Notes: generated by a model from the letters alone, not told the origin. A stretch of 413 bases of DNA from Escherichia coli (GCF_003334405.1 NZ_QOWM01000067.1); one strand, 5' to 3'; positions 1-413 are shown, counted from the first letter of the stretch. Made by a program: numbers and translations.

Positions 1-5
1 CAAAT

Positions 6-34
6 GCCTGATGCGCTACGCTTATCAGGCCTAC
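6..34 (+). repeat. REP palindromic unit, Z2-like (29 bp); reads 5'-GCCTGATGCG...GGCCTAC-3' on plus strand
   Basis: Sequence gcctgatgcgctacgcttatcaggcctac. Imperfect palindrome: 6-12 pairs with 24-30 (7 bp), 13-15 pairs with 19-21 (3 bp), tt bulge at 22-23, loop cta at 16-18. Ends in CTAC (GTAG on the opposite strand). Matches my recollection of the short E. coli Z2 PU consensus. Confidence 0.8.
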
Positions 35-51
35 AGATTCTTGCGCCATTC

Positions 52-85
52 GTAGGCCGGATAAGGCGTTCACGCCGCATCCGGC
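52..85 (-). repeat. REP palindromic unit, Y-like (34 bp); reads 5'-GCCGGATGCGGCGTGAACGCCTTATCCGGCCTAC-3' on minus strand
   Basis: Plus strand gtaggccggataaggcgttcacgccgcatccggc. Its reverse complement matches the classical E. coli REP/PU Y consensus as I recall it. Stem 56-62 pairs with 79-85, inner stem 65-68 pairs with 73-76, loop ttca. Starts with GTAG on the plus strand. Confidence 0.88.
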
Positions 86-98
86 AATGGTGACAAAT

Positions 99-127
99 GC
101 CTGATGCGCTACGCTTATCAGGCCTAC
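99..127 (+). repeat. REP palindromic unit, Z2-like (copy 2)
   Basis: Identical to 6-34, offset by 93 bp. Confidence 0.8.
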
Positions 128-144
128 AGATTCTTGCGCCATTC

Positions 145-178
145 GTAGGCCGGATAAGGCGTTCACGCCGCATCCGGC
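145..178 (-). repeat. REP palindromic unit, Y-like (copy 2)
   Basis: Identical to 52-85, offset by 93 bp. Confidence 0.88.
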
Positions 179-191
179 AATGGTGACAAAT

Positions 192-220
192 GCCTGATGC
201 GCTACGCTTATCAGGCCTAC
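192..220 (+). repeat. REP palindromic unit, Z2-like (copy 3)
   Basis: Identical to 6-34, offset by 186 bp. Confidence 0.8.
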
Positions 221-237
221 AGATTCTTGCGCCATTC

Positions 238-271
238 GTAGGCCGGATAAGGCGTTCACGCCGCATCCGGC
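238..271 (-). repeat. REP palindromic unit, Y-like (copy 3)
   Basis: Identical to 52-85, offset by 186 bp. Confidence 0.88.
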
Positions 272-284
272 AATGGTGACAAAT

Positions 285-313
285 GCCTGATGCGCTACGC
301 TTATCAGGCCTAC
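285..313 (+). repeat. REP palindromic unit, Z2-like (copy 4)
   Basis: Identical to 6-34, offset by 279 bp. Confidence 0.8.
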
Positions 314-330
314 AGATTCTTGCGCCATTC

Positions 331-364
331 GTAGGCCGGATAAGGCGTTCACGCCGCATCCGGC
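331..364 (-). repeat. REP palindromic unit, Y-like (copy 4)
   Basis: Identical to 52-85, offset by 279 bp. Confidence 0.88.
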
Positions 365-377
365 AATGGTGACAAAT

Positions 378-406
378 GCCTGATGCGCTACGCTTATCAG
401 GCCTAC
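378..406 (+). repeat. REP palindromic unit, Z2-like (copy 5)
   Basis: Identical to 6-34, offset by 372 bp; followed by the first 7 bp of the 17-bp linker before the window ends. Confidence 0.8.
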
Positions 407-413
407 AGATTCT

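Follow-up and report, generated by a model that had tools for sequence, protein, structure and literature searches.

How many repeat units does a locus of Escherichia coli contain when its sequence is known as an uninterrupted run of identical copies, and does such a run reflect a recent expansion? The question is raised by the window analysed here, the whole stretch of 413 nt, which consists of 4.44 copies of a 93-bp unit. TRF reports one array covering positions 1-413, with period 93, 4.4 copies, 100% matches, 0% indels and a score of 826. A direct base-by-base check of the window gives w[i]=w[i-93] at all i. The first 41 nt occur in five exact copies at a spacing of 93 nt, and pieces of the unit of 100-151 nt recur three to four times, compared to zero occurrences in 200 shuffles. 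The perfect array described in an earlier reading made from the sequence alone is thus borne out. The same reading placed both edges of the window within linkers, and this is correct as well: the window opens with the last 4 nt of the 11-nt tail-to-tail linker (bases 1-4) and closes with the initial 7 nt of the 17-nt head-to-head linker (bases 407-413).

The 93-bp unit is composed of an inverted short Z PU, a 17-nt linker, a Y PU and an 11-nt linker (Table 1). The PUs of the window are imperfect palindromes of 30-40 nt capable of forming stem-loops. GTAG at the foot of the hairpin, or CTAC on the inverted copy, is the definition of REP (PMC3333891), and indeed GTAG precedes the Y hairpin and CTAC follows the Z hairpin. 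The elements are extragenic and highly repeated, with at least eight matching places in each of 5,426 genomes. Folding yields -13.2 kcal/mol for the Z hairpin as RNA (z -4.1) and -8.4 as DNA, and -20.9 kcal/mol for the Y hairpin as RNA (z -4.6) and -12.2 as DNA. Stable stems form on each of the two strands, with z from -4.1 to -5.3 for RNA, and likewise when folded as DNA. An inverted-repeat finder reported nothing in the window, the stems being interrupted. No sigma-70-like promoter and no intrinsic terminator were found by a promoter and terminator scan of the window.

Table 1. Features of the 413-nt window
Feature	Position	Strand	Remarks
Tandem array, 4.44 identical 93-bp BIME units (Z1 iREP, 17-nt linker, Y REP, 11-nt linker)	1-413	.	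perfect periodicity; unit = central unit of the yahG-yahI array
Short Z (Z1-type) PU, copy 1	5-34	-	inverted on +; ends with CTAC at 31-34
Short Z PU, other copies	98-127, 191-220, 284-313, 377-406		
Head-to-head linker AGATTCTTGCGCCATTC, 17 nt, copy 1	35-51	.	variable sites 42 and 49 tell unit types apart
Head-to-head linker, other copies	128-144, 221-237, 314-330		truncated at 407-413
Y PU (REP), copy 1	52-86	+	5' GTAG at 52-55
Y PU, other copies	145-179, 238-272, 331-365		
Tail-to-tail linker ATGGTGACAAA, 11 nt, copy 1	87-97	.	variable sites 87 and 93
Tail-to-tail linker, other copies	180-190, 273-283, 366-376		truncated at 1-4
Segment S, 41 nt common to P (window unit) and A (K-12)	1-41	.	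first k-mer: predecessors A/G in the K-12 and N921 graphs, k = 21-77
Segment S repeated at the 3' edge	373-413	.	identical to 1-41; last k-mer: successors C/T in the K-12 and N921 graphs, k = 21-77
naRNA4 (RF02564) match: Y hairpin, linker, Z hairpin	55-124	+	78 bits
naRNA4 match, other copies	148-217, 241-310, 334-403	+	
Two stop-free frames spanning the array	1-413	-	frame 2 = YahH MAQESVGLISVAHQAFVTIAGCGVNALSGLR; frame 1 = charged MRRERLIRPTNGARICRPDKRSASGICHHCR

Judged by its sequence, the window is the REP23/"yahH" BIME array of E. coli, a known element located between yahG and yahI. The TRF consensus derived from the yahG-yahI array becomes exactly the window unit when rotated, and the best matches of the window in all E. 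coli genomes are at this locus, under an ORF annotated as "protein YahH". The exact unit is found there, with one copy in K-12 MG1655, two in N921 and three in a metagenome contig, L005 (OATN01000477.1). The name REP23 is that used for the yahG-yahI array in the literature, where it is described as a BIME which has five repeat blocks in EHEC and fills the rejected gene yahH (PMC4765031, PMC11551758). Both flanking genes lie on the minus strand of the window and form a co-directional cluster, and the array is intercistronic; it starts 12 nt past the stop codon of yahG and ends 49 nt ahead of the start codon of yahI, two codons that are separated by 421 bp in K-12. The array of K-12 (yahG b0321, yahI b0323) has the same 93-bp unit base for base, with Y and short-Z units, linkers and orientation all alike. 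However, it contains four units, two of which are variant (F, of 92 nt, and A, with five differences), with one exact window unit and 86 nt of a second one, whereas the window has 4.44 identical units and neither a variant unit nor a flank. Searches of plasmid and phage collections produced only F' copies of the K-12 yahH and scattered REP matches.

The number of units at this locus differs between strains. The locus was delimited by a query consisting of the two flanks only, applied to an evenly spaced sample of 57 complete genomes. The yahG-yahI spans in this sample are 640-642, 688-699, 792, 875-876, 968-979 and 1060 bp (n=57), with steps of about 93 bp, and these six classes correspond to approximately 0, 1, 2, 3, 4 and 5 units. 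One representative or more of each span class was then read unit by unit. There are no units in 4621, one in 90-9280 and in Ecol_542, two in GN06667, three in C325, four in K-12 and NRG857C, and five in N921, EDL933 and L005. The N921 allele differs from that of K-12 by one extra copy of the window unit and nothing else. The repeat-free allele, counted in 655 of the 5,426 complete genomes (12%), has an unrelated spacer with a hairpin of its own. The repeat-free spacer of 4621 was also considered as a member of another repeat family and rejected, as it is single-copy.

Thus the yahG-yahI spacer is a copy-number-variable (VNTR-like) locus, at which strains differ by whole units. This agrees with the sequence-only reading, which had proposed a variable site and a comparison of the orthologous spacer across strains: in complete genomes the number ranges from 0 to 5 units in steps of about 93 bp, and the repeat-free allele is common enough to be counted in hundreds of genomes. 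It also agrees with published data: good conservation of the tandem BIME copies within a locus has been reported together with strain-to-strain differences in their number, and a model of TnpA_REP amplification has been suggested (PMC3333891). In this respect the finding is ordinary: a known element at a known variable locus, catalogued as REP23/yahH. REP/BIME arrays, the near-identity of copies within a locus and the variation of copy number between strains have all been described already. On the other hand, homogeneity is specific to lineages and is no property of the site, since the units of the NRG857C allele have diverged, with 4-19 differences each.

The sequence-only reading had assigned the array to the BIME-2 type. 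Three classes are relevant here. Firstly, BIME-1 combines z1 and y, is single and has a long linker, often with an IHF site (PMC3333891). Secondly, in BIME-2, z2 and y are joined by short linkers and repeated in tandem (PMC3333891, after Bachellier et al.); strong binding and cleavage by DNA gyrase is a further trait given for this class in the literature. Finally, atypical BIMEs are multi-copy chimeras of parts of BIME-1 and BIME-2 (PMC3333891). The layout of the window is that of BIME-2, with tandem copies in which REP and iREP face opposite ways, and with short linkers (17 and 11 nt). However, its Z unit is the short form of 30 nt, while the form called Z2, found in REP325 and around rayT, has about 37 nt. 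The short Z is also present in the single-pair BIME-1 located 3' of katE, where an inverted Y is followed by a linker of about 35 nt with ATTCAATATATTG and by a short Z; katE-type elements (Y, the ATTCAATATATTG linker, short Z) occur in all 5,426 genomes.

The unit types of the window therefore fit BIME-1, but this class is ruled out by the tandem copies, the short linkers and the lack of an IHF-like site: WATCAANNNNTTR is absent from the window even with one mismatch allowed. Canonical BIME-2 is unlikely too, because its composition is y + z2, while the short Z unit of the window is probably of the Z1 type. By elimination, and by the example of the katE BIME-1, the window array is fairly likely to be a tandem of Y and Z1, that is, an "atypical BIME" rather than a canonical BIME-2. 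Of the earlier label, the alternating PUs of BIME type, the tandem arrangement and the short linkers stand, whereas the Z2 type probably does not. The naming itself is not uniform, as one figure legend labels the REPtron units z1 (Messing et al., PMC3479197), counter to their naming as Z2.

Comparison with individual elements gives the same picture. REP325 (yjdM-yjdN), a canonical BIME-2, resembles the window in its tandem of alternating Y and Z hairpins, separated by about 17 and 11-13 nt, and in its match to the Rfam model RF02564; its neighbouring copies have 96% matches. However, its period is 100 rather than 93, and the gap of 7 nt equals the difference in length between Z2 and Z1. The katE BIME-1 shares with the window the pair of Y and short Z, but it is a single pair with a linker of about 35 nt and the IHF-like ATTCAATATATTG, whereas the window is a tandem with short linkers and no such site. 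The BIME-2 flanking rayT (yafM) in the REPtron has inverted alternating Y and Z units and short linkers, as does the window. REPtron BIME-2 elements are substrates of TnpA_REP in vitro (PMC3333891). However, the REPtron copies have the long Z2 and other linkers, and there is no transposase gene near yahG-yahI.

The unit of the window is thus a natural one, whereas its perfect repetition is found in none of the complete genomes. No perfect match to the 413-nt window was observed in 5,426 complete genomes (best 98.4%), and none to its first 300 nt (best 98.7-99.1%). These genomes contain two consecutive exact units at most, and three are found in one metagenome contig. The longest perfect periodic run is 179 nt in K-12, 272 nt in N921 and 390 nt in the L005 metagenome contig. 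An exact pattern of 190 nt, which requires more than two identical units, is absent from 100,044 species-representative genomes and from viral contigs; it matched one metagenome contig (L005), which does not contain the whole window. No species-representative genome matched an exact 100-nt pattern for a single unit. Since two exact copies are the maximum in complete genomes, a very recent expansion cannot be concluded from zero divergence, as the sequence-only reading had suggested. Its statement that the real array is longer than shown holds trivially, the flanks being missing, but further identical copies are not implied.

The position of the window edges suggests another origin of the perfect run. 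Comparison of unit A of K-12 with P, the unit of the window, shows five differences, at unit positions 42, 49, 70, 87 and 93. The window runs from unit position 1 to unit position 41 of a later copy, that is, it starts after the last and stops before the first of the differences between A and P. Its edges coincide exactly with the 41-nt segment S, the only one common to P and A. The absence of mismatches may therefore follow from how the window or its contig was delimited.

De Bruijn graphs with k = 21-77 were constructed for the genuine loci of K-12 and N921. At all these k, the whole window is a legal walk in the K-12 or N921 graph, leading from an in-branch to an out-branch. At k = 55 or 77 each k-mer of the loop is truly present only one or two times in K-12. 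There are two in-branch positions and two out-branch positions per 93-nt period, and under random cropping the chance that both edges fall on branch points is about (2/93)^2 = 4.6e-4. In the graphs of EDL933, L005 and C325 the window edges are not branch points, and the graphs of B2-type alleles do not contain the window as a walk. The exact junction of A to P is found in about one fifth of complete genomes, where a 149-nt match is perfect in 9 of 40 rows sampled at even spacing and reaches 99% or more in at least 450 records. Thus a lineage able to give these edges is common, and laboratory strains are included.

These observations fit a simple scheme. In the graph of an ordinary K-12-type allele, an assembly path would circle the loop of identical units four times and would halt at the two branch points of the graph, which are the edges of the window. 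Equivalently, the sequence could have been cropped at the first mismatches on each side. We consider it slightly better than an even chance that the flawless 4.44 copies are a product of such an assembly loop or of cropping and do not represent the true copy number, given the coincidence of the edges and the precedents described below. The copy number and homogeneity of the window are then probably made by software and not a biological measurement. An artefact of assembly or construction was one of the alternatives listed in the sequence-only reading, and it is the one best supported by the edges on graph branch points and by the leftover array pieces; the inference of recent expansion is further undercut because the graph of an ordinary K-12 allele allows the window as a loop walk. 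However, the walk crosses the same branch points three times before stopping, unlike a strict unitig, and thus a path-extension heuristic must be assumed. Moreover, natural alleles with one, two and, in a metagenome, three copies exist, so that four or more are only one or two steps away, and a real array of the form [A]PPPP[A] cropped at the first mismatches would have the same edges.

The precedents come from two RefSeq assemblies designated as "complete", at the end of which leftovers are strung together: poly-C, fragments of tRNA and IS sequences, and pieces of the REP23 array. In XL1-Blue (NZ_CP081007.1) there is a stand-alone array of about 470 nt with the unit order P-A-P-A-P, while the true K-12 order is F-A-P-L; a second XL1-Blue assembly has a normal yahG-yahI allele. 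In BL21(DE3) (NZ_CP081489.1) one stand-alone unit is followed by poly-C. Like the window, these leftovers are pieces of the array without genomic flanks, from 102 to about 470 nt, and the XL1-Blue leftover has an order of units not present in the parent strain. Unlike the window, they lie within concatenated junk of a chromosome record and include the A unit, whereas the window consists of P only. Therefore, for perfect tandem arrays without flanks the assembly path should be checked before a recent expansion is inferred.

Such an expansion is the second explanation to be considered. The window could have been cut from a genuine, recently expanded yahG-yahI allele with at least four consecutive identical units, exceeding all complete genomes examined, which would have been produced by replication slippage, unequal recombination or RayT-mediated amplification. 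We regard this as doubtful, though worth serious consideration. Indeed, alleles differ by whole copies of the window unit (one in K-12, two in N921, three in L005), the perfect periodicity of L005 extends over 390 nt, near the 413 nt of the window, and both the number-variable conserved tandem BIMEs and the TnpA_REP amplification model (PMC3333891) are consistent with it. However, none of the 5,426 complete genomes has perfect periodicity over at least 300 nt, and the three-copy L005 array comes from a metagenome assembly subject to the same loop ambiguity. The 3' edge is a further difficulty: it requires a unit with C at position 42 after the identical units, either by the adjacency of P to A or by another mismatch at just this position, and neither is seen in any trustworthy genome. 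P followed by A occurs only in the junk region of one assembly (XL1-Blue), and in natural K-12-type alleles the run would go on to unit position 86 instead of stopping at 41.

It thus seems to us rather unlikely that the window truthfully represents a strain whose REP23 array has grown to at least four, and maybe many more, identical units. If it were true, the expanded array together with its variant flanking units would be larger than anything in the 5,426 genomes and probably larger than the K-12 maximum of 12 PUs. It would also point to ongoing amplification of the unit, by slippage or driven by RayT, with a likely effect on the ratio of yahG and yahI expression.

A third explanation, that one natural unit was tiled head to tail in a synthetic concatemer, a cloning construct or a test sequence, is very improbable. 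It would account for the lack of any flank or mismatch, and the exact 413 nt were not found in any collection searched. However, tiling is not expected to begin and end at branch points of the K-12 graph (chance ~5e-4), and vector or adaptor sequence is absent. We thus prefer the assembly loop or cropping for the perfect run, within a native REP23 array.

The native array has been annotated as a gene, and this annotation bears on its function. Two frames on the minus strand are open across the whole window because 93 nt are 31 codons, and the array could accordingly be read as a protein-coding gene, yahH, encoding a protein with 31-residue repeats. Apart from the stop-free frames, this reading is favoured by the RefSeq annotation as "protein YahH" (or "hypothetical protein") and by ribosome footprints on the 465-nt ORF X002/yahH in EHEC (PMC4765031). 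However, when 8,000 word-sharing candidates from a collection of 5.8 billion proteins were scored, the relatives were 17 hypothetical proteins of Escherichia and metagenomes, none with a Pfam domain on record. Translation of the window in the YahH frame retrieved only ordinary YahH-like ORFs with coverage of 53-57%. The NCBIfam matches (SidA and others) are noise summed over repeats, with no significant stretch. A conserved protein family beyond the repeat was not found, only hypothetical ORFs of E. coli. Exact protein look-ups with putative longer YahH proteins and with the partial ORFs running from edge to edge gave no match, but the controls from K-12, EDL933, N921 and L005 were equally unmatched, so that these look-ups carry no weight.

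The behaviour of the ORF in genomes also argues against a gene. It is missing in the 12% of genomes with the repeat-free allele, its length and frame shift with the number of units and with a 1-nt deletion in some of them, and its frames and starts disagree between annotation pipelines. Thus the protein-coding reading of the array is unlikely, the footprint report notwithstanding, and a repeat protein yahH as the explanation of this sequence seems to us extremely improbable. Still, an ORF made of repeats ("YahH") keeps being called across the array, in differing frames, by annotation pipelines.

Another candidate product is an RNA. The plus strand of the window contains four matches to RF02564 with 78 bits, above the gathering score of 59.5. 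One possibility is that the locus is an array of naRNA4-like small RNAs that condense the nucleoid with HU, as proposed for REP325. RNAs with two hairpins, in either orientation, condense DNA with HU in vitro (PMC4550694). However, the minus strand, on which yahG and yahI lie, scores 53.9 bits, below the threshold, and the Z hairpin of the window is 7 nt shorter than in the naRNA4/REP325 model. The matches at yahG-yahI are on the strand opposite to both flanking genes, unlike those of REP325, which have 95-111 bits and are on the strand of yjdM-yjdN; this comparison concerns gene orientation only. The nucleoid role of naRNA4 is claimed (PMC4550694) and has been contested by a 2026 preprint (bioRxiv 10.64898/2026.03.23.713779). 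We consider that there is hardly any chance of such a role for this array.

The function at yahG-yahI is likely to be local, namely protection of mRNA and attenuation, as extrapolated from other REP loci. In particular, REP325 has been found to stabilise mRNA and to attenuate in a partly Rho-dependent manner (bioRxiv 10.64898/2026.03.23.713779). The native array would be transcribed from the minus strand of the window, together with yahG and then yahI. By analogy, the hairpins in the operon mRNA may keep 3' exonucleases away from the upstream yahG message and may partly attenuate read-through into yahI, and the number of units could then tune the yahG:yahI ratio. The DNA of the array may bind gyrase and serve as a target of RayT, again by analogy. 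Slippage, or unequal recombination of identical units, would add and remove units of 93 bp, and RayT may assist in this. If the copy number of the window is real, the alleles with 0 to 5+ units would form a natural series for the dosage effect of REP on flanking genes.

The potential to form hairpins is conserved among the alleles. Pairing is kept in 98.3% of cells over 17 distinct units, compared to 29-35% with slid partners, and for the Y hairpin it is kept in 99.5% of cells across the allele units. The inner stem of Y contains two compensatory changes from G-C to A-U pairs, both of which come from one allele.

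Three exact copies of the window unit were found in a single record, the metagenome contig OATN01000477.1 (L005, positions 240-704). As this contig is itself a metagenome assembly, the number of copies in it is subject to the ambiguity that also affects the window, namely an assembly path that may circle a loop of identical units. Among complete genomes, the most reliable natural maximum is two exact units, in N921.

The units are not uniform in length or in the Y hairpin. Units of 92 nt were observed in EDL933 (L003, unit 2) and at the compared loci L004 and L001 (unit 1 of the array), the 17-nt linker being short of one G. 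This agrees with the "missing base in the fourth block" reported in PMC4765031. The loss of one G shifts the reading frame in any open reading frame running across the array. In strain NRG857C, the inner Y stem of units 2 and 4 has the sequence GACA...TGTC in place of GGCG...CGCC. These are two compensatory changes from G-C to A-T pairs, present in two non-adjacent units of one array. They could have arisen by duplication of a two-unit block or by conversion from another Y variant.

The site between yahG and yahI is free of repeats in 655 of 5,426 complete E. coli genomes (about 12%). In strain 4621 (L010) the spacer of this allele folds into an 11-bp hairpin (-21.1 kcal/mol, z -3.5). The repeat-free spacer is a replacement of the array, not an empty insertion site. 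E. coli plasmids have about 120 matches to the yahI-side flank alone, with about 96% identity (a gene of the carbamate kinase family); these plasmid matches (e.g. NZ_CP098193.1, NZ_CP095821.1) carry neither the yahG side nor the array.

Positions of the repeat-free spacer and of the leftover regions in chromosome records
Feature	Record	Position	Description
Repeat-free yahI-yahG spacer	strain 4621 (L010)	about 297-346	unrelated single-copy sequence, about 50 nt
Leftover region	NZ_CP081007.1 (XL1-Blue, L002)	1-6457	yahH array piece at 3002-3471
Leftover region	NZ_CP081489.1 (BL21(DE3), L016)	1174-1340	

Two RefSeq chromosomes labelled "complete", NZ_CP081007.1 and NZ_CP081489.1, have ends that resemble concatenated leftover contigs. 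Gene fragments (IS, RHS and phage), single tRNAs and a long poly-C tract occur in these ends, along with pieces of the yahH array that stand by themselves. In one such piece the window unit P and the neighbouring K-12 variant unit A follow each other in the order A-P-A-P, which is absent from the parent strain.

Ordinary BIME arrays score above the gathering score of the Rfam model naRNA4 (window 55-124 and its repeats; L004 3812-4067; L012 2306-2882), and in the window array the matches run antisense to the host operon. A hit of this kind on a BIME array is a sign of the Y-linker-Z geometry, not of a specific sRNA gene. The frame 2 translation of the window minus strand matches the 29-position NCBIfam model NF033228 (cell division inhibitor SidA) with 43.1 bits, the curated cut-off being 35. 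No stretch of this match is individually significant, and the SidA assignment was rejected as a false positive, a weak 13-residue match summed across the repeats.

The units flanking the transposase gene rayT in MG1655 are named z1 in PMC3479197 (Figure 1 legend) and z2 in PMC3333891 and PMC2817692. In the MG1655 genome these units have the long Z form (L014 2003-2042, 2645-2683 and 2745-2784).
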